A stretch of 63,846 bases of DNA, counting the filler, from Collodictyon triciliatum (lineage: Eukaryota): the NCBI GenBank assembly GCA_043381765.1. It is 6 parts of 6 records of this genome, joined end to end, with 100 filler letters (N's around TTAATTAATTAA, not from the genome) between each part and the next. Parts side by side here need not be neighbours in the genome. Positions count along the whole stretch, not along the records: positions 21,777 to 39,953 come from JBHJMP010002564.1; 5 more parts are not named here. One strand, written 5' to 3'. Made by a program: the position numbers and the translations under genes. The first letter of the stretch is position 1, and every line of letters begins with the position of its first letter. A model generated the notes under the pieces. The model made no database searches and was not told the origin of the DNA. It saw nothing but the letters and a program-made list of their open reading frames with translations. Positions 16,951-40,053 of this stretch are shown here, piece by piece.

Positions 16951-17022
16951 GCCGCAATGGCCCAGTGGCAAGGCATCTGCCTCGTAAGCAGAGGATCGCG
17001 TGTTCGACTCACGCTTGTGGCA
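16951..17022 (+). tRNA. tRNA-Thr(CGU)
   Basis: Cloverleaf: acceptor GCCGCAA/TTGTGGC, D arm, anticodon arm TCTGC-CT CGT AA-GCAGA, T arm GCGTG-TTCGACT-CACGC, discriminator A, followed by an oligo-T Pol III terminator at about 17033-17040. Confidence 0.95.
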
Positions 17023-21776: not shown

Positions 21777-22350
21777 TGTGTGTTTTATGTGTGTGTTTTA
21801 TGTGTGTGTTTTATGTGTGTGTTTTATGTGTGTGTTTTATGTGTGTGTTTTATGTGTGTGTTTTATGTGTGTGTTTTATGTGTGTGTTTTATGTGTATTA
21901 TTTGTTTTTTGTGAGATCTCTTCCGCTTTTGTCGCCGACAAGAATGAGAGTGATCAGATCTGCTTTGTCTGGATAATCCATAAATGGTATGCGCAATTAT
22001 AATTGTTTTTGATCAAAAAATCACGAGACAAAACGCAACGACAAAGCAGACCCGCACGCACGGTTCTACAACCCCCGTTCTTCGCACTTATCTCTCATAA
22101 CCAACGCGTGGTTTGCGTCTACTCGAAGATTATACCCAGGCCTGTCCAAGCGAACAGTGTCTCCTTATCAGAATCACTATAGGGGCGACTCAGTGAAGCG
22201 TTGTCACAATTTATTTCTTATCTCTCCGCGATAGAACAAGAGTTAACGTCAGCCCTTCCCACTCCCCTTTTCCCCGCCTGCCCAGGTTCAAAGCTCCCTC
22301 TTCCTTTCATCGGGTGAAAAAGCAGCCAAAGAGTCCAACTGTTGCCGCGA

Positions 22351-23809
22351 ATGCAAAACAACCTGAACGTGCATCTTGTGAGCGCCATGTTTCGCGACGC
22401 CCTGTCCAAAAACGTCCCGACTCTGGAAGATCTTCACTCAGCACAACAGACACACGCATCACACTCTTTAGCCAACCCGCGAGTGCAGACCGACCGCTCA
22501 GACATTAGTTAACTGACTCCACCGCGTCCTGGCCGGATTCGTCATTTGCGGCTTCGGCGCTTGGCTCCGGCTAATACACATCCGCGTTCAACAGCCTATC
22601 GCAGCGAAACAAGCCGGACACTAAGTTCCTAAAAGCCAAACACGCTACCAAGCTCGGCTGAACGCGCAGGTATTTCTCTGTCTCCTCTGCGCGTAGATGC
22701 ACCAAGTTCGTCGCTTCCAGGCTCTGGGCGAATCGGAGCCGATCGATTTATCGCTGAAAAAACAGTCGCCGACCGGGTAGAGTCTGGCCGAGTCCCTCCA
22801 GTAGTTGCCAGTCTCGCAATTCTCTCGTGGGACTCAATTGCCCATGACCCTGATTATGTGGCATCCGCAAGAGCCTGGCTTTGTCGCAACTACTCCCTTA
22901 GCTCGACTGCACCCAGTATGGATCAAAGACTTTTTGTCTCCTTTATTCGCGAGTTTACATCGGCTTGGTCTCTACCCCGTATTTATACGCTTTTTGATAT
23001 GATGGGTGAGTTTTCTTCTTTCTTTTTTTTATTATTTCAAAACCGGAATACCTTTGTATAATTGGAATGTATATCTCACGGTGTCATCATCCATGTTTTT
23101 TGCAGTTGAATCTCAAGACATATTTCATTCAACTCTCTATGTCCATTTTTTTTTCAATAAAAAAATCAATGGGATATAGCTTTTGCTCTCTTTTTTTTTT
23201 TGCAGTCTTTACTTACATTCATAAATATTCGTTTTTAAATAGACGAACACAATACTTGTGTCCTTGGATTCAACCAGATATACATGCTGATATGTCTTTT
23301 GATAGCACTACATAACGGTGCATGTATTCCGTTTTGGTAATTACTATTTTTTAAAATTTGTTCAGCTGTTTGAGACTAAAATCTGTTCCCTTCAGGCACA
23401 AATATCACGAACTGGTTCATCATCTCTTGACTCATGTCACCCTTGTTCCCACGGAAACCGTATCTGACTATTACAGGCTAGTACATATGCATTCACGTGG
23501 CTATTATTGTTGTTATTGTTGTTATGTATTTTATCGAATACTGTTCATATCAGTTAGTATCTTTATAATTTTGCGTCATAATAATTATGTAGGTTTGGAC
23601 ACACTATCGGATTATCATCTCAAATACTTGAAATCTCTCGTTTTCGTTTTGGATGGGCAATTACGAAAGAGTTGAGCAAGGATGAGTTTACCTTGTTTTA
23701 CTATACTGTTTTCAAAGAGTACGACCAAGGGTTGAGAGAGATGGCTCCACTTACAGTGAAAGCTCCACAATCATCCAATTCAAAATCAAGATGGTGTTCA
23801 ATACTCTGA
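22351..23809 (+). CDS. EFCAB9-like EF-hand-derived protein with C-terminal CaaX motif; start uncertain
   Basis: Spliced: FVSFIREFT...IYTLFDMM|DEHNTCVLGFNQIYMLICLLIALHNGACIPFW|HKYHELVHHLL...YYR|FGHTIG...DEFTLFYYTVFKEYD...SKSRWCSIL*. Resembles the EFCAB9 pattern VFDMLD...FYMLVCMLLA...EFKLY as I recall it. Confidence 0.65.
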
Positions 23810-24074
23810 CCCAGCTGTTCATTTAATTTCTGTTATTTCCTCTGAATGTATTATGAAATTTATCATTAGCTCTACTTCTCCTTAATATCGTACTATTTTT
23901 AATTTCCTATGACAAAATAAAAGACATATTTATTTATGTATCTCTCCTGGACAGTTATATCTATGTCACATTAACAATAATTGCACGTCTTCGCGCAGAA
24001 GTAATGAACGGAGAAAAATCTTCTGTATGAAGTTGTCTCGTTCCAACCATATATGAAAATAGGCCCTTGCCTTT

Positions 24075-24151
24075 TTTGTTTGTTTGTTTGTTTGTTTGTT
24101 TGTTTGTTTGTTTGTTTGTTTGTTTGTTTGTTTGTTTGTTTGTTTGTTTGT
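24075..24151. repeat. (TTTG)n microsatellite
   Basis: Lies between the EFCAB9-like gene and the ATG7 fragment. Confidence 0.95.
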
Positions 24152-24392
24152 CATTTATTCGGTACTAGTGCGCTTACATTAAATAATTAACTCTTCTCTA
24201 TCTGCGTGAGGCTAGCGCTTCTTGCCAACCAAACGAATTCCTATATGCTCAACTTTAATTATATTATCCAAATATAATAAAAAAATTTGTTATTGATTTT
24301 ATATTGTCATTGTAGCTTCCCTTGAATCGAATAAAGGGAACAAAATTCTTTTCAGCATAATTTTGAATAAAATGGTTGCTCGATCTTGATAG

Positions 24393-26721
24393 AGGATATT
24401 CCAGTGTTACTTTAAGTCAATGAATAGAAAATTGCAAATGCCAGATTTCTATACCTATGCCCGGTCACCCTATCTCTGAAGGTGAAAAAGAGAAGGTTCG
24501 TACCTGTTTATTCAATTATAATCCTATGGATATTGCAGTATATGAAGCATATTTAATTTGTGATATCATTTAATTTTTTTTCACTAATGTAGTTTGCAAC
24601 AGAATGCAATAATAAAAAAAACGGCAGATATTCGGCGAAAGACAATTTCTTAATGTATGTCAAAAATTTAAATTCTACATAGACTCGAAAGGACGTTGCT
24701 TTGCTAGAAGAGCTAATGACACTATTTTCCTCCTGACTGACACTCGCGAAAGTAGATGGCTACCAACTTTGTTGTCCACAAAATACGAGAAGGTCTTTTT
24801 ATTTTCTTTGTATTTTCTTTGTATTTTCTTTGTATTTTCTTTGTATTTTCTTTGTATTTTCTTTGTATTTTCTTTTTATTTTCTTTTTATTTTCTTTTTA
24901 TTTTCTTTTTATTTTCTTTTTATTTTCTTTTTATTTCCTTTTTATTTCCTTTTTATTTTCTTTTTATTTTCTTTTTATTTTCTTTTTATTTTCTTTTTAT
25001 TTTCCTTTTTCTTTTTATTTTCTGTTGGGTTACTTTGTGGTATAATAAATTATTTGTCCTTCGGCGAGAGAGGGGAGAAGTGCTTGTGAAGAAGAAAAAC
25101 AGGAGATGATATGATGGTGTTGTATTCAAGAAAAAAAAAGGCAATTAAAATTTTATGATAATTTCAAATGATTTGAGTAGATGACTATTAATTCGGCCCT
25201 TGGATTCGATTCTTATATGGTCATGAGGCATGGAAAAAAATCCCACCCCAAAAAATCGCGTCTTGGGTGTTACTTTTGCAACGATGTTGTGGCCCCCAAT
25301 GACGTAAATGATACTTTTATTCACCATATATTTGGATGTAAAAACGACTATCCACGGTACACCATATTATCGGTTTAAAATATCAATCATTCTTATTTTG
25401 TGGTTACTAGTCTCTGACTGATAGAACACTTGACCAACAATGCACTGTTACACGACCAGGATTGTCATTAATCGCCTCCTCGCTGGCAGGTCGGTCATAT
25501 ACTACTGAAATCATGTTTAAGATCGATTGGGTTTATTCATATATGTATATACTTTCGGTATTGCTAGCAGATATAGGCGATAAAACCACATACTCTTAAT
25601 GATCATGTTCACTTGTAGTGGAATTGATGGTGGCACTTTTACATCACCCTCTTGGGTATGTTGTATTTATTCAATGTCTTTATTATATTACGAATGTGGA
25701 CTAGGTGTCTTTCATTTAACCCATTTACCAGTCACCAACTGCTTAAAATATCGAAAACAGCGACAACGCCCCAAGCGAAGTTCCAGGACAGCAACCAAAC
25801 TCTGTTTTAGGTCTCGTTCCACACCAAACACGCGGAAATATTTCAAACTATTCGTTGGTTTGTCTATTCGTTGTATACCCCATCTTTCATACAAGCATAT
25901 ATTCCGCTTGAAGACTTTTACGGAGATTACGTTGCATCAATTTTGAGCTTCTTTGCAATTAAAAGTATAAGGTTGGCGAAGTGTAGGGTGATGACTAAAA
26001 GAGAAGTAATTTAGATGACCCTAACAGGATTCGCATTCGATAAGTGTACTGCATGTTCAGATATCGTAAATGCTGATATCCAATTACATGCAAGCTATAC
26101 TGTCATTTAACTAGGATTTTATCTGATATTTATACCCCTCTCATAATATATGTACATAGGTCGTCGATCAGTACGAAACAGCAGGATTCGAATTCTTGAA
26201 CCAAGTATTGAATTCCCCCACTTACCTTGGTGAGCTCTGATATTATGATGTTGTGATAAATGGAACGTGCGGCAAAATATGTCGTTTTTATGACCTCTTC
26301 AATTTACTTTCCTTTTGGTTTGTGGCTGCAGAGGACCTGACTGGGCTGACTGCGTTGAAATCAGGTTTGGGCGGTGTTACAGTCTATGCATTTTGATAGT
26401 GAATAGAGACTGGACTGATATTAAGTCAAAATATCCTTGAACGGCATGTTATTTCATATGAGTTATATAGAAAACTGATACAAACACTTTGCAAAATTCT
26501 CACACGTTCGATTTTAAATATGATTTATATTTTACAACCCGCCATCTACCGCCCCACCAGAACAATTTGATGTCGAATGGGATGAAGAGGATGGCTTTGG
26601 AGAAGAAACCGTGGGCTCCGATGAAGGCGAAGAAGATGGAGACGGACGCAATCAGCTCAAAGAAAAAGATGGCCACACGAAGGCGCCCGTCTCTTCTGGT
26701 GATGGTGATGACGATTTCTAA
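24393..26721 (+). pseudogene. ATG7: ATG7 (E1-like autophagy enzyme), C-terminal half only, with an apparent frameshift
   Basis: [82 protein letters not shown]. The frame breaks at about 24716 and no N-terminal half is found upstream. ATG7 identity is near certain; pseudogene versus assembly error is not. Confidence 0.7.
24800..25020. repeat. 11-mer T-rich intronic minisatellite (TATTTTCTTTG / TATTTTCTTTT)
   Basis: Inside an ATG7 intron. Confidence 0.92.
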
Positions 26722-27126
26722 GAACCGCTAGAGTGCGAGGTTGGGCAGCGGAAAACATATTCAGCAGCCCGTTATGGCATGAATAAACAAATGTCAGTCT
26801 CTTTTGATTTGCTGTGCGACATCACAGATTCTGATCATTTCAAGCCAATCCAGCGAAGCCCCATCGAGGCATGCGAGAGCACAGCGAACAGCAGACAAAA
26901 AAGAAATCTTGCTGTGAGGCTTTGTGGCATGAGTGCTTTTGGAATACAAACGAGCTCGGCTAGTTTGAACGTGGGGAGGAATTGTAGAAACATTCTCGTC
27001 TCTTTGTCTAGATCAGTATTATGCTGCTTCTTTATTGAAAAAAAAAATAAAACCAGAAAAAAAAAGTAACTTGGGAAGATGTGATCAAGAGAAAGGAAAA
27101 TGAGAGCCTGACTGAAAAGTGTTTAG

Positions 27127-29629
27127 ATGCCCGGCGTTCTCTCCATCTCAAGACAAAGTCTGTCGTTCTCCTCCACGGACGGAGCTCTTCCAGTTTTCTC
27201 CATCAATCGAACAACTGGGGTCGTCACACTTGGTCAGTCTCACAATTATAATCACGATCATGATCAGAATAATAATAAGTAAAGCATTGGTCAAAATGAT
27301 TTTCTTTGAAGAGTAACTGCCCCCTTTCTTTTTTTTTTTTCTTCTAAAGCTCATGGTTTACTCACTATTAACTGTTCGTTCTAAAAGATGCTCCGAGCTC
27401 TGTTACGTCGGAGCGCACGGTAAACTTTGAAGCTCTCTTTGGTATCATCAACCTTCCTTCAGGTAAAGCTATGCAAGTTGTTTTTTGTTTTTGTTTTTGT
27501 TTTTGTTTTTGTTTTTGTTTTTGTTTTTGTTTTTGTTTTTGTTTTTGTTTTTGTTTTTGTTTTTGTTTTTGTTTTTGTTTTTGTTTTTGTTTTTATTTCT
27601 ATGAATGGAACTTTAATGGCCGCTTCGCTTATCCTTCCCACAGTTTGTACTTATTCGTCTATTGTCAGGTGATCATGTTATTCTGGTGACTGAGATTAAA
27701 ATGGTTGCTTATGTACTGGAGAAACCCTTCTATCAAATCACCGGTACCGAGGTTATTCCTGTGAAACTGAATCCTGACGGAGGGGTCAGCAAGAAAGTGG
27801 GGATATGCTTTGAGATATATTCATATGAAAATAATCATGAGGCGAATCTTCATGTTATATGTTGTATGTATTGAATCACAGCAGGTGTTCTATGCAAATA
27901 ATTTATTTATTTATTTCAAGTATCCCTTGTCTTCAACAAAACGAACTGTAGCTCGCCGACAAGTACCTCAACTTGCTGAAGCAGCAGTTGAAAACCCCTA
28001 GCTTTTACTACTCTCCTGGCTATGATCTGACCACTTCACTCCAAGCTGCGCAGAATGTTGATCCATCTGCCCCAGTCACGCAAAGAGTAAGAAATATTTT
28101 GTTTTAAAACATAATAAAATGCAACCATGAAGTTGGATTAAATTTAGAAGAAGAAGAAAAGGAAAGGAATGATTATGTGACTTTGCTTGGATAATAGGTT
28201 CAGCAGGAATTCATGTGGAATTATCACGCCTCCCGAAAACTTTTGGATAATCCAGATGTAACCCACCCGAATAAATGTTAAGGATATTTTTGCATACCTC
28301 TCTTTTCATGTTATTTACCCATTCACTAAAAAACGGAAATGCTTACTTGCTTTCCAAAAGCTTCACCCTTGGGTTGTTCCTGTCATATGTGGATGTATCC
28401 AACACTTTTCATAAGAAACATGGTACATTTGATGAGTGAGATAATTTCTAGATTGAAAATGCGTATATAATAACTACTATTGTACTTGACTATTCGAAAG
28501 TTGTTTTCTCGAAAAACGCTTCTATTTCCAGCTCGGCTTTCTCCTATACGCTGATTTCTCGTCGCAGCCGACTTCGTCCAGGTATATTTTCCTTTGTATT
28601 ATATTCTCACAGCACTATTTGTTATTACATAACCCCTTCTTCTTTTTTTTTTCATTTACCATGAGAGCTATAGTAAAATACCCTGTGTAACTTGATGCTA
28701 TAAGGAACACGATACTTTGTCCGTGGAATTGACACAGATGGAAATGTCGCAAATTTTGTTGAAACGGAGCAGGTTATTACCATATATATTCGAAGTTTCC
28801 TTTCCATTCATTTGATTTGGGAAAATGTAATATATTTACTGAATATACTTTTTTGTTTCCTCAGATTTTAACGAAGGGCTCTACAACATCCTCTTTTTTA
28901 CAAATCAGAGGATCTATTCCACTTATTTGGTAGCTGGTTCAATCAATAATACAAAAAAGAAAAAGAAAACTTAAAACGTCAGGCTTTCCACTGCTATAAT
29001 AAAACAATAAAAGGACATTTTCTTTTCCAAAAGCATATTCACCAGAGCTGCAGATAATATCATTCATTTTATGTTCTAGGAACCAAACGCCGAATATCAA
29101 ATATAAACCCAGTATCGAGGTGAATCCCTCTCCGCTTAATGTAAGATTCTCTTACTTTTATAATTAAATTAACAAGAAATGATCGGAAAAATCATAATGT
29201 AGAAGGAAAAGAATAGAGAACATTTGATCGTTATTTGGTAGTATTATTACCATTATTTGGTATTTACAGACCCTATTTATGTCATATGTTCATTTTAGGA
29301 TACTGCATTTGAGAAGCATGCAAAGAAAATGAAAGAGCGCTACTCCAAAGTAACCTTAGTTAATCTGGTTGACGCCAAGGGTGGGGAACTTAGACTTGCC
29401 TCGGTTAAGACTATTACTGAACAAAAAAAAAAATTATAATTATATATGATCTAAATACGCTAACAGATGGCATGTAAGTCGAGCTGATCTAATTATATAC
29501 CTACAATACAGACTTTTGAGCAGAAAAATACAAAGTATAGCAGCATGGGCATGCGGTAGATGATTTTAGATTATTTTTTTTTTGAATATAGAGTTCATTT
29601 TTTCTGCTTTGAATTGTACTTGTTAATGA

Positions 29630-29691
<62 letters not shown>

Positions 29692-31571
29692 GCGTAGATA
29701 CATCCACTTTGACTTCCATAAGAAATGCAGCGGGATGAAATATCAAAACTTGATAGAGCTTCTGAAGAGCGGTACCCTTTTCTTTTTAAATTAAAATTAT
29801 GTATGGTGCATTCATCACCTAGAGAGAGGTGTTTTTTCTACTTTTCCATGGATTATCATGTACTCAAACGCGAAATATTGGGATTAGTGGAGAACGATAT
29901 TATCGAGTTTGGGTTTTTCTCTAAGGCTGATGGAAAAGTTCAAGTAGATTTTTTTTTATGATGTTAAATTATATTTTACTTTTCCTGTTTCCTGTGAATG
30001 AAAAGGTCTTTCGCTTACTTGTTTTCCCCTTTGACATTAGCTTATGATGATTAAATTAAGAATAAAAATTCCTTGTAAAATCATATCAGAGCATCCAAAA
30101 CGGCGTTTTCCGCACAAATTGTGTCGATTGTCTGGACCGTACTAATGTGGTCCAAAGCATGCTTGCCCGCTATGTGCTGAACCAACAACTACAGGTTTTG
30201 CTTGTTTTTTGTTTGTTTGTTTGTTTGTTTGTTTGTTTGTTTGTTTGTTTGTTTGTTTGTTTGTTTGTTTGTTTGTTTGTTTGTTTGTTTGTTTGTTTGT
30301 TTGTGGGAAACTGGTATTCTAGCGTAAATACGATTACACCACATGTGTCTTTTCAAATATTAAGAAATCATCATGATGTGCTTAGGAAGTCGGCATCCTC
30401 AATGAAAACGAGACGTTTGATAGATATGCAGCGTTCGAAACAGTTTTCAAACATGGTAAAAAAAAAAAAAAAACCTGGCATGAACTTTTCATGTTACCTT
30501 GACTGATTTTTTGTGGTTAAGAAAAAAATCTTTTATTCGATTCAAGCTGTGATTGAGAAATTTTAAATGGCTAATACCTTATACCTTCATGGGCAAAAAA
30601 AAAAAGTTTGGGCTGACCACGCGGATGCAGTAAGCACTCAATACTCTGGAACACCGGCCCTAAAGACTGACTTTACGCGGTAGGACTTATTTACATATGA
30701 AATGATTCAGAACTTTCATTTCATTCGTACTATTTTGCTTTCTATACTGTGATAGCACTGGGCGCCGTACCTACCGTGGGGCTATCGACGACGGAATCAA
30801 TTCGTTGAAGCGCTACGTGCTTAACAACTTTTACGACGGTGAAAGACAAGTGAGTTAAATTTGAAGCCATCAGAATAATGTGATTACGCAGCAAAAATAA
30901 GATAGCTACTGAAGCTCAACTTTTTTTTAAAATAATAATAATAATCCTCATTACTTGAATATTTTTTTTTCACTCGTGTGTGTCTGTGCTAGGATTCGTA
31001 TGACCTTATTCAAGGCAACTTTTTCCCCGGACAAGGAAAAGACCCGTTCGCCAACTTGACTGTCATTCGCCTGGTAAGAAGTCTTCCCTTTTTCTTTCAT
31101 TCACGCGGATGCTTGAAGGCAACCGACCCCAAAACGAAATTCTTGAATTAGCATCTCTGAAGTCTACTACAGTTTGCACTGTTTTTTGTTTTTCGAATTC
31201 ATTTGAGCAAACACACCAAAGGTCATTGTCTTGCTTATGATTGCCATCTTATTTGTTGTCGGCTCCACTTTCCCTCCGAGTAAGTCGCCCGATATTAAAT
31301 AAATCCAGTATTTCCTTTTGGCGATATGGCTATGAAGCCCCGATGCACTTGTAATCAAAACTTTGTCCACAAAGAAATCTATATCACACATGCCTTTGGA
31401 TTATCCTTGTTAAAATGATTTGATGATAATAAAACAGGCTCGGACCCAGCAGACTTTGCTCTCTTTGCCGTGTCGCTGGCCTTGACGTGCTTCGTGCTGT
31501 TCCGCATAGCCGTGGCAGCATCATCCAAGCTTGTGGATTACCCGGCGCTGAACCCAAAGTACCGCAGATAG
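27127..31571 (+). CDS. SAC1: SAC1 phosphatidylinositol-4-phosphate phosphatase, many exons
   Basis: [33 protein letters not shown], catalytic [16 protein letters not shown] (CX5R), [34 protein letters not shown], two C-terminal TMs. Confidence 0.95.
27480..27595. repeat. (TTTTTG)n intronic microsatellite
   Basis: Inside a SAC1 intron. Confidence 0.95.
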
Positions 31572-32276
31572 ACGCCCCAAGTCAACACCGCTTGCGTCTG
31601 GCTGGAATCGAACCTGCATCCCACAGTCACCCGAATAAACCCATCCCTTCAAAGCCGGCAGAAAAGGAGTGAACCCTCCATCCAAACATTGCGCGCCAAA
31701 AGAGTTCATAACGGTTCACACTAAATATGGAAAATTCCACAACGGCTTCTGCACCGAGTTGCATCTCTTTCATTGAATGCTGGCAGAGAACGCGCCAGCT
31801 GTGCGGCCTTGGGGGAGGCCTATTTCGCTCGGATTGTCGGATAAAGATGCAAACCAGACTATCACAGAGGAAAGAAACTCGATGGAAGTCCCTGTGTATT
31901 GGTTGATTCGCCGCAACTGCCGTTCCCTTGCCGCAGGCGCCACTTCCCCCCGCACGAGCCCAGAGCCGGATGGGAGAGACTGTGTTGTGCGCACGCGGGT
32001 TGTGAACGGATCATTTCTTCCTGACCGCACGATTTATTTCTCTCATAGACCAAGGGAAGAAACCCCACGCAGAAGGAAGCGATAGGGTCTCGAAGAACGT
32101 CCCGGCCTTCGTCTCCTTTGCCCAGCGCCACTTCTTCCGCTCCTTTCTTTTCTTGGAAGCTTGAACCGCACTCAGCCCGGATAGTTGGACCGGATTTCCC
32201 AGACAGCCCACCTTTTCCGAAGCACCCCAGCAAAAACTGTACTGGGTCACCCTCCCCGGCCGAGAGAGAAAGGAAG

Positions 32277-32421
32277 ATGTCGTCCGGGTCAAAAAACGAT
32301 CGCTTCTGGCTGGATCCCAACCTCGCTGCGGTGGAAGCGGCGCCGCCCGTGAAGCCAAAGAACTTTCCTGGTGTGGAGGAGATCACCTTCAACGCAGCAG
32401 AAGAGCGCAAACAGGTACGCG

Positions 32422-32510
<89 letters not shown>

Positions 32511-33023
32511 TTCTCTCTTTTCTCTCTCTCTTTTCTCTCTCTCTTTTCTCTCTCTCTCTCTNNNNNNNNNNNNNNNNNNNNNNNNNNNNNNNNNNNNNNN
32601 NNNNNNNNNNNNNNNNNNNNNNNNNNNNNNNNNNNNNNNNNNNNNNNNNNNNNNNNNNNNNNNNNNNNNNNNNNNNNNNNNNNNNNNNNNNNNNNNNNNN
32701 NNNNNNNNNNNNNNNNNNNNNNNNNNNNNNNNNNNNNNNNNNNNNNNNNNNNNNNNNNNNNNNNNNNNNNNNNNNNNNNNNNNNNNNNNNNNNNNNNNNN
32801 NNNNNNNNNNNNNNNNNNNNNNNNNNNNNNNNNNNNNNNNNNNNNNNNNNNNNNNNNNNNNNNNNNNNNNNNNNNNNNNNNNNNNNNNNNNNNNNNNNNN
32901 NNNNNNNNNNNNNNNNNNNNNNNNNNNNNNNNNNNNNNNNNNNNNNNNNNNNNNNNNNNNNNNNNNNNNNNNNNNNNNNNNNNNNNNNNNNNNNNNNNNN
33001 NNNNNNNNNNNNNNNNNNNNNNN

Positions 33024-33069
<46 letters not shown>

Positions 33070-33156
33070 TTCTCTCTTTCTCTCTTTCTCTCTTTTCTCT
33101 CTCTCTTTTCTCTCTCTCTTTTCTCTCTCTCTTTTCTCTCTCTCTTTTCTCTCTCT

Positions 33157-33238
<82 letters not shown>

Positions 33239-36200
33239 CCTTTGTCCAACTCCGTCTGCGCGACCAACAAGCAAATCTGCTGATCAAATCCTGCGCCTGC
33301 AGCTCACGGCGGATGAGGAGGACATTGCGCTGCTGACCGTGGACGAAGCCCTGTTCCTGAGCTTCTCATGGGTGGGCGAGCTGATGCACTGGCTGCTGCT
33401 ACTGGCCACGGGCGGGCTGTACTGGCTGGTCACGCGCTGGGTGCGAGGGCTGGAGGCGGCTGTACGCTACCGCCGTGTTGCCTCGCCCGACCCCGCGGCA
33501 GACTACGTGCTGGCCTACTCCATCGACCGCTTCGAGGAGATCTGCCCTATCCGCTCCATCGACCCGCGCACAGGTACTCCTGAGTGGGTTCCGGTGAGTC
33601 AGGCCCGCTCGGCCGCCGCAGCATCCTCAGCGTCGCCATCGGCCTTCCCATTCCCCCGCATGTTCGAGTGGCGCCACGAGCGCTTCTGGTTCGACACGGC
33701 CGCGGGCAAGTGGGTGCGGCTGCAGTTTGCCGTGAATCAGGCGTCGCACCGGCTCCACGACATGGCTGCCACACTGGCCTTCCGCAACTGGGACGCCATG
33801 AAGGCTGCCCAGACCGGGGCGGCGGCGCCTCTGGGCGATCTCTACAAGGGTGACCTCTCATGGGACGATTACACCCGCGACCTGACCTACGGCATCAACA
33901 TCATCGACATCAAGCCCAAGCCCTTCATCGTCCTCATCAAGGACGAGGCCCTCAAGCCCTTCTTTGTCTTCCAGATCTTCTCCCTGATTGTATGGTACTT
34001 CCAGGTTTGTCCTCAGTCTCTCTATCTCCTTCCTTCCTTCATCTTTCATTTCATGATTTTGGGGGCCAGGCTCATGGACATAATCCTTCGCCCCATGCTC
34101 CATTTGTGCAGGCGTACTACCTCTACACGGGCATCGTCTTTATGTTCACCATCATCTCGCTCTGCTCCACATCCTTTGTGACGTGGCGAAACCAGCACAG
34201 TCTGCAGCGCATCGCAAAGTCCGAGGTCCCTGTCACAAAGCTCTTCTTGTCAAACAAGCAGAGCACAGAGGTCATTTCGCCCGAAGTACTGCACCGCAAT
34301 GGCCGCAGCAAGGGCACTGAACGCACCCGCCCCTGGGCTCCCGTCCCGACCTTCCATCGCGAGGTCATCAGCAGTGCAAAGCTCCATCCGGGCGACTTGA
34401 TTGAGATCACCAACGGCACCACCATCCCTTGCGACATGATCCTGCTGTCTGGAAGTGTTGTCATCAACGAAGCCATGCTTACCGGTGAGAGTGCCCCAGT
34501 CCAAAAGACATCTATTCCTTACCATCATGGTGATGGCCCAAGCACAGACCAGAGCTCCTGGTTCAGACTCGGCTCCGACCGCGATGCAAAGTATGTTTTG
34601 TACTCGGGCACAAAAGTTGTCCAGGCAAAGCCCCAACCTGCAGCCATTTGCAACCCCATCGCAGAGCGACAACAATCTTCTGATCAGTATACATATAAAA
34701 ATCCTCAAACCATCTGGCAGGTACCCATCGTTTTCGATCTGATGATAATCAAAAAAAATTAACATTCAATTGAATCAGCCTTCTCAGGTTTTCTTTGATT
34801 TTTGTTCCATTTTTTTACATAAATAATACCCATCCATCAGTTCTCCATGGACCAAGCAGCGGCCTCATATTCCGAACATCTTAAAACTACAGATATATCT
34901 GAAGCTGATATCGAGAAAAGGGTTCAAGTTTTCCTCGATTCCTTCAAGAATAGAGAGAAATCTCTCCCCATTATTGGCATGGTCATCAAGACAGGCTTCA
35001 ACACCGCCAAGGGGAAGCTGATTCGCGCTATACTCTATCCAAAGCCCTCAAAATTCGATTTTGACAAGCAAATGGTGAAGTTTATGATCATTCTAATCGC
35101 CGCTACCCTCGCTGGGTGTCTCGCCACTGTTGGATTCTACGAAGACCAAGGAGCTTCCAGCTTGGATACACTCTTAAGTTGCTTGAATATTGTTACTGTT
35201 GCCATCCCCCCTGCTCTCCCACTGGCTCTCTCCGTTGCCCTCACGACTACTTTTTCTGAGCTGCAGCTCAAGAAAATCTTTTGTATCAACCCGAATCGTA
35301 TCGTCCCTGCCGGTCGTGTGAACACTCTGTGCTTTGACAAGACAGGAACTCTGACTGAAGATGGTCTTACCCTTAAGAGTGTCCATACACTCACAGCCTC
35401 CGATGAACATGACGTTCCTCATGACGGAAACCCAAAGTCCAAATCCATGATGTCACACACCACACTCAGTCAGCCAGAGACAGACCTTGTCACATTGTAT
35501 CAGAAGGTTTCTACATCTGAGCAAAAAACACGTTTGTTTACTAATAAGACTTACATGACAAGAGACGGTATTATTGCTCCTTGTAGACTCGGGATGGCCT
35601 ATGTTGTCGCTGCATGCCACAGGTATTGTCCTTAGGGGAAAATGGCATTCAATTTATTTTTTGTCAGTAATCTACATATCGACGATAAAAGAAATTCCAG
35701 AAACCTTTACATTTCCTTTAAGGGAAAACAATAATTTTCTCATATAGATATGCTCTATTGATAAAAAAAAATATATATGTTATATATAGCCTTGCTGTCC
35801 TCGAAGAGGATGACCTCAACGACGATGACATCTCCGTCGATATGGAGAAGGAAGGAAAGAAGAAGCCAGAGAAGGAGCCCACTGGAGAATATAAAGAGCA
35901 GTTTGTTGGAGACCCACTCGAGATTCAAATGTTCGCCCAGTCTGGTTGGAGATTCGATACTAGGTCGTCAATCAACAAGAAAAGAGGGATGTTTGGCTCT
36001 CAGGTTTTTTTTAAAAAAAAAAATGTTTCAGTACGATGAAATGGCGAATAAAATAAGAATAACCCCTTAATGCTACTATAGTGCTTATATCATAATCTTC
36101 AAGAGTTCGTAGATTTTTTTTTAAAAAAAAAAAAAAGATAATTATTTAAGGCAAGTTCTTAAATCATGACACATCTTAGGTTTGGGATGACACCAATCTT

Positions 36201-39200
36201 CCCTCAGCGACTGAAGTTGTAATGGTGCCACCCCAAGTAGCTGGTGCTGACGAAGCTCTTGCCATCATCCGGCGATTTGATTTCGATTCCACACTTAGAA
36301 GAATGAGCAGTGTGGTCTATCATTCCCCGATTGAAAAGCAGAGAAGAGACGATATGTACTTCTCTACTTTAGTGAAAGGTCTGATGAATAATAGTAAAAA
36401 TCATACAATTAATTTAACCTCTCATCAATGAATCGGATACTTATGATTCAAAATATAGGGGCTCCTGAAAGTCTGCGTGAGCTTTGTTACGAATTCAGTA
36501 TCCCAGCTGACTATGACCAAGTTCTTCATAACTTAACAATGGAGGGATATCGCGTTCTTGCCTGTGCATATAGACCATTCACCGCTCGTGAAGTCATTGG
36601 CCCTGATGCGTCGTCCAGCATGACACAACAGGAACTCATGGAAGCTACCCGAAAGTACGTATCATCATCTCGCCGTGATGAGATGGAGAAGGACCTTTAC
36701 TTTGCTGGATTTATTGTTATGGAGAACTCCTTGAAGAAACCCACTCTGCGCTACTTGGAAGAATTCATTCGTGCTGGTCTTCGATGTATTATGGTGACCG
36801 GTGATAATCCGATGACTGCTGCTGCTGTAGCAAAGCAATGCGATCCATTCTTCTTAAGGCCATCACGACGCACTGTTCTGCTCGACCAAATCAAGGAGCC
36901 TGGACAGGAAGGAAAGCTTGTGATTCGCGACTTGTTGAAGCCTGAAGTATCCACAAACTTCTTTGCGTTCCTCAGAAACCGGAAGGACCACGCCAATATC
37001 AAACTTACTGGGGCCAAAGAAGTAGACCTTGTTGATGACTATGCCGGAACAATTCCAGCCGAACTCTCCACTGAACTGGATATCGTCGTGACTGGCGCAG
37101 CCTTCCAAAAACTCCAAATGATTCACGAGGAGTACATCAAGGAGCAGCAAGAAAATGCACGCAAGAATGGTGAAAAGTAATGCTTCCCTTCGTCATGTTA
37201 TTTTCAGTTTACACTATTTTATATCCGAATATTAACATTTTCTCTGTACTCTCTTTGCTTCATATTTAGGTTCAACCGCAACGCTGGCTTTCACCTGACA
37301 CCGTATCATCTCGTCTTAACCAGAGCAAACATTTTTGCCAGAATGTCCCCACAAAACAAGCAGGAGCTGATGACCTCTCTTCAGGACATTTCACTAGTGG
37401 TTGCTATGTATAGAACAAATATTTTCTTTACACAAGAACTATGTCCAAATTATTTTTGTTTTCATCTTTTCTCTAATACTAACACACGTAATCTGCTGAA
37501 TAGGACGGGAGATGGTGCCAACGATTCTGGAGCACTGAAGTCTGCCGATGTGGGACTCAGTATTCGCGCCAATGATAATGAAATTGAGGATGCTTCTAAC
37601 TCTGCACCAACGATTGCTGCACCCTTTTCAACATCCTACTCTCATATTGGAGCTGTATGTCTTTTTCCTCTCACACGACCACGCGGTTTTTAGTATCTGC
37701 ATTGATTCATTATTTAAAAAAGAAAGTACACGATAAACTGTCTGTACTTACATATTTTTGTTTCCCTCTGTAGTTGTCCATTCTCTTGACTGAAGGGCGT
37801 GCTTGTCTGGTATCGTCCTTCTCCATGTTCAGGTTTATGTTTTCGTACGGTGTCATCCAGTTCACATCGGTCCTTATTTTGTACCGCCTTGTGCTAGAGC
37901 TTCACAATAACCAGTACTTGTGGTCTGATTTGTGTAAGTGTATCCCATTCCCCTCCTTCTCCAGATATGAATTGTCTCATTCAACCCCCAGCATGACAAA
38001 AAATTCTTGTTAGTCCTTGTGTTCCCACTTGCTGTTGTCATGCCCACCATCAAAGCAAAGCCCACCCTCAGCCGAGGACGCCCAGAATCCGATCTGTTTT
38101 CCCCCAGTATTCTGCGCTCTGTGATAGGCCTTGGCGCCATCGTTGCCATCTTCCAAGTTGGGGCTAATGAGTACTTTCGAACCACCTGTAATTCTATCAC
38201 AACGTTGAATCATGCCGCACTTGTATACCATTTTCGCGCCTAATGCGTCTGGGCTGATAACACAAGAGAAGAGTAACCGCTGCGCTTTATTATCTTATCC
38301 AACAACAGCTGATTTCATTGTGCCTGATGATGACACTGACACCACGAATAACCCGGACACCAGCCAAAGCTATGTTTTCTCATCCTTCCAATACACCGCG
38401 GTGGGAGTGGCTGTAAGCCAGAGCTACGGTGTGTTCCGCCAGCCTTTATACCGCGCATATCTTCTGTGTCTGGTGTTTTTGGCCCAGTTTGGCATGAACT
38501 CTGCCATGTTGCTCGGGTAAGTGCATATACGCCTGACATGTATTGCGCATACTTCCCCTCTCTACTTTCTTCTTCCTCTATGTTGTTCCTATCTGTTCTT
38601 CGATTATTGATGCGTGCTCATCATTTTCGTTTCGTGCAGACCAAATGACGACATTAAGGACTACTTCAAGATTATCCCCCCAGCATGGGAAGTAAGGTAC
38701 GGCCGCCCTCGTCCAGGGTTACATCTTCTTTGTCCTCTCCATATATGCCCCACAATGAACTCGGACATGAATGAGCGCAAGGTCTCGTGAACGAGACCAT
38801 CGTGTTTGAAGTTTGGGTTCTTCCTTCCCGTCACCGTCTGTTGCTGATTCCCCCATTCATTCTGTTGTTGCAGAATCAAGCTGTTCGTCTTGGCCATTGC
38901 AAACAGCATCGTCTTCGTGTTGTATGAGCGCTTCTGTGTCCCTCACCAATCACCCGACGAGGAGCCCTTCGATGTGGACGCGGTGGTCAAGGAAATCAGG
39001 CCGCGGGAGCATTCTGACACTGTGGTACGCTGTATTTCGACATCGGCCCTGCCACAACTGACAGCAATACTCTCTTCTATTCTCCTCTCCCAACGTTCTG
39101 TTGCCTTCTGCTCGCACTCACACTAGACCCACACAGCCCTTGGAGCACGACAAGGCCGACTTCCAGCCTACCTTCCTCCCCAAGCTGCGCTGGGCTGTGC

Positions 39201-39265
39201 CGCAATACACCATCATCCAGTCGGTTACTTCCCCCATCTGGTCGGCCCTGGCCTATGCCCAGTGA
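32277..39265 (+). CDS. P5B-type ATPase (ATP13A2-5/Ypk9-like polyamine transporter family)
   Basis: PFFVFQIFS, LTGES, PPALP (P5B-diagnostic M4), CFDKTGTLT phosphorylation site, KGAPE, VTGDN, ARMSP, GDGAND. Confidence 0.95.
32422..33235. repeat. (CT)n-rich intronic tract spanning an N gap
   Basis: First intron of the P5B-ATPase. Confidence 0.93.
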
Positions 39266-39599
39266 GCCAACATACTTCAGTCAAGCCGATGGTGCTTTCC
39301 CTTTTTTCTTTTCTTTTTTTCTACTCAACCCCGTTCATTCACACACACACACTCTCTCTCTCTCTCCTTCATTATTTCAAAGTCCTTCGCGCACACAGCT
39401 CGCTTGCTGGCTGCGACAATCCGGCGGCTGCAAGCGAGCTTCCCATCTTTCGCTTCGCTTATCAACCTTTCTCTCTTCCCCTGCTCAGGCAACATTTTCA
39501 GTTGCCTCGATCCCTGGGTCGGAAGGAGCACAACTTCAGAATAAAGGGGCACCATATGAGAAAAAAGATGTCAGCCACGATGAGAAGTCGTCGCACTGT

Positions 39600-39760
39600 C
39601 ATTCGTTTGTATGTTGTTTAATAGAAGGGGTATGCCATCTTTCGATTGGTAAACCTGGTGCGCTAGTATCCAAGGTCTCTCCACTTTTTTCAAAAAGATT
39701 GTGTAGTGTTGAATGCCGCCAGGAAAGACCCAACAGCCTGATTTTTTAAAGAGAGGTGTA
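39600..39760 (-). ncRNA. Candidate Fanzor omega-RNA scaffold plus flanking guide
   Basis: Overlaps the ORF 3' end. Nested inverted repeats, a GAAA-tetraloop hairpin (39633-39651) and potential pseudoknot pairings. Inferred, not demonstrated. Confidence 0.5.
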
Positions 39761-39953
39761 TTTGTTTTTTTTGGGTTGGGGTTAAAAGAACTTTGTTGAG
39801 TATATTTATGGCGCTGTTAAAGTCCCTTGTCAAGAATACAGTTTGTTTGCTCTCTAAGCGATTGCATTCTTGACATATGAGACATATATACAACTTTTTT
39901 GAATTTTCTTTCAGTGTTACATATTCCAGTTCTTTTTCGCAGTTGTAGCACAT
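39620..39953 (-). mobile_element. 3' end of a Fanzor/TnpB-family element (zinc ribbon + RuvC-III), truncated by the scaffold end
   Basis: ORF 39690-39953: CYNC-x22-CQEC then TVFLTRDFNSAINIL, the CxxC..CxxC..RDxNxAxNI signature. Intronless and AT-rich; right boundary inferred. Confidence 0.85.
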
Positions 39954-40053
39954 NNNNNNNNNNNNNNNNNNNNNNNNNNNNNNNNNNNNNNNNNNNNTTA
40001 ATTAATTAANNNNNNNNNNNNNNNNNNNNNNNNNNNNNNNNNNNNNNNNNNNN
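39954..40053. other. Artificial scaffold spacer
   Basis: Same 100-nt spacer. Confidence 0.97.

Follow-up and report, generated by a model that had tools for sequence, protein, structure and literature searches.

A scaffold end of the Collodictyon triciliatum genome very likely holds the 3' end of one copy of a multicopy Fanzor1 transposable element

What kind of gene ends at the broken edge of a scaffold, when all that is left of it is a short open reading frame running in from that edge? The question is raised by positions 39690-39953 of the window, by which we mean the whole stretch of 63,846 nucleotides of the Collodictyon triciliatum assembly that was analysed, consisting of six scaffolds joined by spacers of the form N44-TTAATTAATTAA-N44. 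On the minus strand a frame of 87 amino acids is open from the scaffold end to a TGA stop at 39692-39690, and the initial annotation took it for the C-terminus of an RNA-guided nuclease of the Fanzor/TnpB type, downstream of a P5B-ATPase gene and belonging to a transposon family of this protist. The features of the locus are the following.

33860..39559, plus strand: P5B-type P-type ATPase gene (PF00122), with GT..AG introns; transcript contigs end at 39546-39559
39560..39621, no strand: spacer of 62 bases from the host transcript end to the element end, with no contig bridging it
39622..39689, minus strand: non-coding 3' part of the element, reaching 68 bases beyond the stop, placed by loose ends of contigs from runs X1 and X2
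39680..39783, no strand: indel relative to other copies, about 91-102 bases, joints 39679>39782 and 39692>39784, neither of them GT..AG
39690..39794, minus strand: non-conserved tail of the ORF, residues 54-87 and the TGA stop, delimited by alignment
39795..39953, minus strand: conserved Fanzor1 C-terminal piece, residues 1-53, with a C4 zinc ribbon and the RuvC-III motif; its N-terminal side is cut by the scaffold end
39950-39948, 39941-39939, 39875-39873 and 39866-39864, minus strand: codons of the zinc-ribbon cysteines, read from the sequence
39827-39825 and 39824-39822, minus strand: R43 and D44 of the RuvC-III motif TRDFNSAINI, read from the sequence
39954..40053, no strand: artificial spacer N44-TTAATTAATTAA-N44 between scaffolds, where the gene is cut by the assembly and not by biology

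The conserved piece and its family

Translation of the frame places cysteines at residues 2, 5, 27 and 30 (and a further one at 24), which make up CxxC pairs at 2-5 and 27-30 and are followed by TRDFNSAINIL, with TRDFNSAINI at residues 42-51; the C4 zinc ribbon and RDxNxAxNI motif of the initial annotation are thus where they were said to be, on an AT-rich minus-strand ORF with a GC content of 0.35 as against 0.54-0.60 in the adjoining host exons. The first codon, an ATG at 39951-39953, is an internal residue and not a start, because the closest protein found (P0011, below) reads ...PSKMCC... across it and because contigs of other copies extend upstream. All columns that are invariant or nearly so among the relatives are kept in the window (C27, C30, F40, R43, D44, N46, S47, A48, N50 and I51). 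The second CxxC pair is invariant in 25 aligned sequences, as is R43, and the aspartate of the RD pair, which had been described as intact, is present as D44 in a column that is at least 90% conserved. R43-D44 follow C30 at a spacing of 12 residues, within the X(5,50) of the superfamily motif C4 zinc finger-X(5,50)-RD as given in the available text of PMC3627910. Over residues 1-53 identity is 45-57% to the relatives and 75% to P0011. The description of the frame as intronless holds for the 159 conserved bases only.

An AlphaFold run of the 87-residue peptide with 20 aligned sequences (mean pLDDT 66.7, pTM 0.36) gave block-mean pLDDT values of 65-88 for residues 1-60 and below 50 for residues 61-87. 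Foldseek of this model against the PDB gave no match at E<=0.001, the top ones being unrelated or Cas9d at E 0.07, and such a search with an isolated fragment is uninformative. No second copy of the ORF was found within the window; 31066-31248 (minus strand), which was considered as one, scored 6 bits with E 0.67 and E 1.4, that is, at chance level.

Direct comparison of the peptide with domain collections says little. Pfam returned generic zinc ribbons only, at E 0.15-1, with PF07282 unlisted even at E<=10; NCBIfam returned no family, and phmmer against the PDB no chain at E<=10. A word-index search at similar length gave one candidate and none at E<=0.001, and it missed P0011 too, so that it is uninformative. 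A phmmer search against 1.84 billion representatives recovered 21 proteins at E<=1e-3, the best being P0011 (E 9e-14), a protein of 136 aa that is 75% identical to the window peptide and has a frameshift of its own immediately behind RDFNSA. In ten proteins of 609-627 aa the match falls at the very C-terminal end and covers about 52 residues at 45-48% identity. In a scan of the 1263 ORF segments of the window of at least 30 aa each, an HMM of 19 relatives that excluded the window gave the ORF 78.8 bits (E 2.3e-23) and the runner-up 6.0 bits; its relatives had been picked by likeness to the peptide, and the score is therefore a statement of family consistency and not an independent test.

The independent step is the identity of the relatives. 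Two full-length proteins (P0025, 634 aa; P0001, 618 aa) and two viral ORFs (L010, 577 aa; L002, 634 aa) each match exactly three PDB sequences, SpuFz1 of Spizellomyces punctatus, PpFz1 of Parasitella and GtFz1 of Guillardia, all of them Fanzor1, at E values from 7e-16 to 6e-37 (the best, to SpuFz1). A profile of 20 C-terminal rows including the window (A2) aligns with residues 1142-1255 of PpFz1, the last 114 of that protein, at E 2.5e-8; SpuFz1 follows at E 0.27, and everything else consists of zinc fingers at E>1. PF07282, which is the Cas12f1-like TNB family of Pfam, formerly OrfB_Zn_ribbon, was touched below threshold by 8 of the 20 members of A2, the window peptide having no match. The profile comparison proposed in the initial annotation thus succeeded for the family (PpFz1, E 2.5e-8) and was not significant for the peptide taken directly to Pfam, NCBIfam and the PDB.

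The motifs of the relatives agree with this placement. As superfamily features we used [TS][TS]-x-x just before the zinc finger and a RuvC-I Asp 125-275 residues upstream, and as the Fanzor1 feature a RuvC-II Glu replaced by Gly or Pro, with the relocated Glu some 45 residues further on, immediately ahead of the ribbon. Bao and Jurka name G500 and E536 as specific to Fanzor1 (available text of PMC3627910), and a rearranged catalytic site of Fanzors is described in the accessible part of PMC10530073. Full-length relatives carry GxDPG at RuvC-I, AYGDWS with Gly at the position of the TnpB RuvC-II Glu, and NEFRTSK directly before the zinc ribbon. Just before the ribbon sister copies read FRTFKMC and FRISKMCC, P0011 reads FRPSKMCC and the family consensus is FRTSKLCC; the scaffold ends before it. 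The relocated-Glu position holds E in the relatives (NEFRTSK), occurs as DEF in P0011, and is D or V in two sister copies.

Taken at the level of sequence, these comparisons support the reading of the ORF as the C-terminus of a Fanzor1 protein, linked to Fanzor1 indirectly, through its family; the broader Fanzor/TnpB assignment made at the outset has been narrowed accordingly by the A2 profile and the full-length relatives. We infer a full Fanzor gene from the other copies and the relatives, the window itself holding no RuvC-I, no RuvC-II region and no N-terminal half; the part that is missing amounts to the N-terminal 85-90% of the protein.

Two of the proteins deserve a remark of their own. 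P0016 (378 aa) consists of a Fanzor1 C-terminal half and is named '6-pyruvoyl-tetrahydropterin synthase' in one source, which is very likely a mis-annotation. P0014 (206 aa), which was left out of the alignments, consists of a unit of about 58 residues that recurs in tandem three and a half times. Each repeat closes with a degenerate ...LVCFDCDALE.KKRLLRTRIFTSSA stretch similar to the zinc-ribbon/RuvC-III part of Fanzor (E 2e-6 to the window peptide).

Copies, element boundary and decay

Of the twelve scaffold ends in the window, the one at 39953 (scaffold 21777-39953) is complex sequence, and the other eleven are simple repeats or A/T-rich low-complexity runs, as had been remarked in the initial annotation. 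The assembly is a short-read, repeat-limited one. The microsatellites at the ends other than 39953 include (AAAGA)n, (ATCCCA)n, (ACAAAA)n, (TTTTGTTGTC)n and (AG)n, and four of the scaffolds have lengths of 10773-10789 bases.

Contigs of four sequencing runs (X1-X4) were aligned to 38500-39953; among the runs listed, the largest share of the sampled words of 39000-39953 was 0.29. The lake and freshwater runs X3-X20 have small word shares, and contigs of X3 and X4 cover ATPase exons only. In X1 and X2 the ATPase gene appears spliced, with 0-1 differences, and these runs therefore hold RNA of the organism or of a very close strain; their label as RNA runs is a guess, the spliced host contigs show that RNA is present, and DNA carry-over is possible.

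The neighbouring gene lies tail to tail with the Fanzor fragment. It matches PF00122 at E 1e-16 and 3e-14 and, among solved structures, ATP13A2 and P5B-ATPases at E 3e-28, ahead of P5A proteins at about 1e-21, so that its earlier label as a P5B-ATPase is confirmed. Atlas taxa for one of its exons go no further than Eukaryota. Its two 3' introns, both GT..AG, at 38695-38871 and 39024/5-39135/41 are removed in the contigs. The acceptor of the second intron differs between X1/X2 and X3, with five other letters at the joint, which suggests strain differences.

Over the Fanzor fragment the picture is that of a repeat. The aligned contigs (26 from X1 and 33 from X2) are mostly 90-95% alike, and up to 8 distinct ones cover a single position. 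Summed contig depth over 39623-39953 is 110-170 as against 15-59 on the neighbouring gene, a figure that is not a copy number. No contig of X1-X4 agrees with the window copy over its Fanzor part without a difference being listed. Two contigs extend past 39944, and their loose ends translate (reverse complement) as DDFRTFKMC and NVFRISKMCC, close to the family's NEFRTSKLCC; since this is a Fanzor motif, the sister copies go on as Fanzor genes. Other copies of the family are present in the RNA-type data.

At the opposite side TAGAAGGGGTAT... of the window recurs in a contig of X1 and in one of X2, each of which carries unrelated sequence to its left, with loose ends at 39622 (X1) and 39637 (X2). 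A repeated element with a defined 3' end and different flanks is thus seen directly, with two copies meeting at 39622 next to a TA; this base is the boundary of the element, which would shift to 39624 should the TA be a target-site duplication. Together with the many diverged contigs over 39623-39953 in two runs, these different flanks at 39622 support the view of the initial annotation that the scaffold broke inside a repeat, and the Fanzor1 repeat explains where scaffold 21777-39953 stops. The element is a multicopy Fanzor1 transposable element, and that this protist carries such a family, another point of the initial annotation, is supported by diverged contigs in two runs that also contain the host gene. 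None of the aligned contigs of X1-X4 bridges 39560-39621, and the join of element and host gene therefore rests on the assembly alone.

Behind its conserved piece the window copy departs from the family. After NIL it reads NKVLLTPTQKK..., whereas all relatives checked, SpuFz1 and PpFz1 included, go on as NIRNLAxxWxxxxxRPxxF. A possible remnant of this tail, IFLKKVERP, lies in another frame (-3) at 39699-39673 and is identical to P0037 in 7 of 9 residues, which is not significant (E 0.095). The two joints at which contigs skip part of the tail come from run X2 only, one contig each and at low depth; TCTTTT stands as a direct repeat (minus strand) at both edges of the skipped stretch, and 39680-39783 is an indel between copies.

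Several ways of rescuing the tail were considered and rejected. Skips of 91 or 102 bases do not restore the W...RP..F frame, for which 86 bases would be needed; the sole GT..AG candidate (39791-39738, 54 bases, phase 0) stays in frame and yields no W...RP..F; and a frameshift has only the non-significant IFLKKVERP match to offer.

Of the listed ORF differences from other copies, 11 of 12 change the residue. With its aberrant tail, the indel, the mostly residue-changing differences and the lack of an identical contig, the window copy is probably decaying and, as far as its sequence can tell, probably dead. The catalytic Asp and the zinc ligands we read as intact by happenstance in a family of decaying copies.

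Giant-virus relatives and the rival readings

When IMG/VR was scanned with the family alignment, 232 of the 309 stretches matching the pattern proved to code for relatives, and many of their contigs bear GVMAG names; it is in this sense that the earlier comparison with giant-virus-type Fanzors has been borne out. Eighty of these 232 loci were kept and fetched with 4 kb on each side. They are 48-61% identical to the window over residues 2-53, and in 64 of them the match lies within a frame that is open from stop to stop over 500 aa or more (median 625). A DDE_3/HTH transposase of the Tc1/mariner type lies within the fetched 4 kb flanks in 35 of the 80, which is a lower bound because many loci are cut by contig ends. 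The HTH plus DDE_3 transposase genes are immediate neighbours of the viral Fanzor1 ORFs, whose strand they may or may not share (L010:1442-2473, L002:1033-2073).

The viral elements share a sharp common 3' end (...TTTAAATG..CAAAGGTGTAA), 16-133 and mostly 45-93 bases after the stop, with compensatory changes in 9 of 18 predicted pairs. The terminal ...CAAAGGTGTAA is common across L001-L080, for example at L010:4150-4343 and L003:2886-3055, and a stem formed by alignment columns 68-79 with 111-126, which partly overlaps the last codons of the ORF, has compensatory changes in 7 of its 9 pairs. This conserved end and its stem are probably a guide-RNA scaffold.

At the window element such a scaffold would be expected in the 3' end at 39622..39689 (minus strand). 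Folding of 39560-39830 (minus strand) showed no excess over chance (z +0.68), since 153 of 200 shuffled sequences folded no worse. Rfam over the whole window gave no guide-RNA family and as its sole match a tRNA, a gene at 16951-17022 on the plus strand (RF00005, 62 bits). A search by nhmmer, with a profile made from 16 non-redundant 3' ends of viral elements, had no match in the vicinity of the locus. The covariance model R1 (181 positions, 18 pairs, from the 3' ends of the viral relatives), run with filters off over 21777-39953, had its best matches elsewhere at E 0.19-0.7 and its best one near the locus at 39870-39914 (6.9 bits, E 4.1). By profile and covariance model, the viral 3' end and its covarying stem are absent at the window element.

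Metagenomes (JGI and others) were scanned as well. The peptide gave 357 pattern matches, none of which was confirmed; of the 332 candidates brought up by the alignment, 288 proved to be relatives, reaching 57% identity at most, short of the 75% of P0011. In L081 and L083, the closest metagenome relatives (55-57%), the C-terminus lies in frames of 105-137 aa on contigs of 4.2-4.4 kb, and these may be intron-split eukaryotic genes or decayed copies. A tree of 60 C-terminal columns was built from 119 rows (80 viral loci, 38 of 41 proteins, and the window; P0014, P0012 and one other protein were left out), which reduced to 86 unique ones. In it the window pairs with P0011 (SH-aLRT 95) inside a set of 25 rows (99) made up of 21 proteins, 3 viral loci and the window; 47 of the 83 inner branches are unresolved, so that the tree gives no donor and no direction of transfer. 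What can be said is that the family of the window ORF falls into a lineage of Fanzor1 with many members on giant-virus contigs, often within Tc1/mariner-type elements that have a DDE_3 transposase.

How far do these observations leave room for other readings? The notion that the ORF is an unrelated zinc-ribbon protein, or a frame open by chance, would suit the weak generic Pfam matches (E 0.15-1) and the fold search with nothing significant in it, but has almost no probability left. The E values of 2.3e-23 to the family profile and 9e-14 to P0011, matches that always fall at the extreme C-terminus of Fanzor1-type proteins, and an RD-N-SA-NI pattern in invariant columns mean that it is effectively refuted by the phmmer, A2 and HMM searches. 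The abundance of relatives on giant-virus contigs raises a more serious alternative, namely that the fragment is an integrated giant-virus segment or viral contamination and not part of a cellular transposon family, the more so as both sub-types of C-terminus are found on viral contigs and the ORF is far more AT-rich than the host exons. We consider this very improbable all the same: identity to the best viral or metagenome relatives is no more than 53-61% over 36-53 residues, neither the conserved 3' end of the viral elements nor a TIR ending in GGTGTAA is present, several copies at 88-95% with different flanks fit spread and decay in a cell genome, and on its scaffold the element is separated by 62 bases from a host gene that is spliced.

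A different challenge accepts the cellular Fanzor1 family and concerns the state of the copy, which might be an intact and active gene, incomplete only in the assembly, with a tail that is lineage-specific or that hides an unconventional intron. Zinc ligands and RuvC-III Asp are indeed intact within 87 open codons, contigs of the family occur in RNA-type runs, protist Fanzor genes can have introns (accessible part of PMC10530073), and the X2 contigs skip 91-102 bases exactly in the tail. Yet the skips are not GT..AG and neither of them gives the W...RP..F frame, which would take 86 bases; the 54-base GT..AG candidate fails likewise, the tail motif is kept in all relatives checked, 11 of the 12 listed differences change residues, and no contig is identical to the window copy. 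An intact gene is on this balance unlikely, and we return to the reading of a probably decaying copy.

Proposed explanation and comparison with known systems

We conclude with considerable confidence that 39622-39953 is the 3' end of one copy of a multicopy eukaryotic transposable element encoding Fanzor1, and that this copy is probably decaying. Fanzor1 is the eukaryotic and viral descendant of TnpB, and the host of the element, judging from the runs in which the neighbouring gene occurs, is a freshwater protist. What the window keeps is about 53 conserved residues, then a tail that has diverged and, as far as the boundary at 39622, about 68 bases of non-coding sequence; the remainder of the gene is missing only because the short-read assembly broke inside the repeat. 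By analogy with the family, the ribonucleoprotein of an intact member would contain a guide RNA transcribed from the terminal part of ORF and transposon, the guide itself coming from the flank, and would cut TAM-adjacent double-stranded DNA by means of a RuvC triad. The triad would consist of the RuvC-I Asp, the relocated Glu just before the zinc ribbon and the D44-type Asp, of which only the third is visible in the window. This guide-RNA and RuvC mechanism is carried over from the family as presented in the available portions of PMC10432273 and PMC10530073.

A bolder proposal, which we regard as speculative and rather doubtful, is that the family is a cellular, still-transcribed branch of a mainly giant-virus Fanzor1-Tc1/mariner lineage, with a guide RNA of new architecture in its 3' end of about 68 bases. 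If true, this would mark fairly recent traffic of RNA-guided nuclease transposons between giant viruses and a freshwater host. The occurrence of Fanzor1 in protists and giant viruses, its motifs and its links to transposons are already published, according to the available text of PMC3627910, PMC10432273 and PMC10530073; the present find adds a host and a subfamily and not a principle, and the supplementary lists of PMC10432273 and PMC10530073 may already include one or the other. It flags a transcribed Fanzor1 family in a protist that is present in lake metatranscriptomes. It also connects that family with the many mariner-Fanzor1 elements of giant viruses, most of them unannotated, a set that could be of use in studying how RNA-guided nucleases are exchanged between virus and host.

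Among known systems the closest is Fanzor1 itself, which in SpuFz1 (8gkh), PpFz1 (9cf0) and GtFz1 (9cer) has the same order of zinc ribbon, RD-x-N-x-A-x-N and protein end. The relatives of the window ORF likewise carry GxDPG, the Gly of AYGDWS and the relocated Glu of NEFRTSK, as expected from the available text of PMC10530073 and PMC3627910. Unlike these proteins, the window keeps only about 53 conserved residues, is without the in-frame W...RP..F tail found in SpuFz1, PpFz1 and all relatives, and has no guide RNA at its 3' end that fold, Rfam, profile or covariance searches could find.

For Fz1, the accessible part of PMC10432273 states a presence in protists as well as in giant viruses, with viruses as the probable means of its spread. 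The viral relatives resemble the PGv-1-type mariner-Fanzor1 elements in having an ORF of 577-634 aa beside an HTH and DDE_3 transposase, a likeness that is drawn from the description in the available text of PMC3627910 and not from a comparison of sequences. In contrast to the viral elements, that of the window lies in a cell genome beside a spliced host gene, is without the viral 3' end and stem and, being visible at its 3' end only, shows no transposase.

With TnpB (IS200/IS605, IS607) and with Fanzor2 the family shares the motif C4 zinc finger-X(5,50)-RD (available text of PMC3627910), and some of its members touch PF07282 below threshold. The full-length relatives match no TnpB, Cas12 or Fanzor2 chain of the PDB at E<=1, in a copy of the PDB that may hold no Fanzor2. 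They are about 600 aa in length as against about 400 aa for TnpB and Fanzor2, and they are linked to DDE transposases and not to TnpA.
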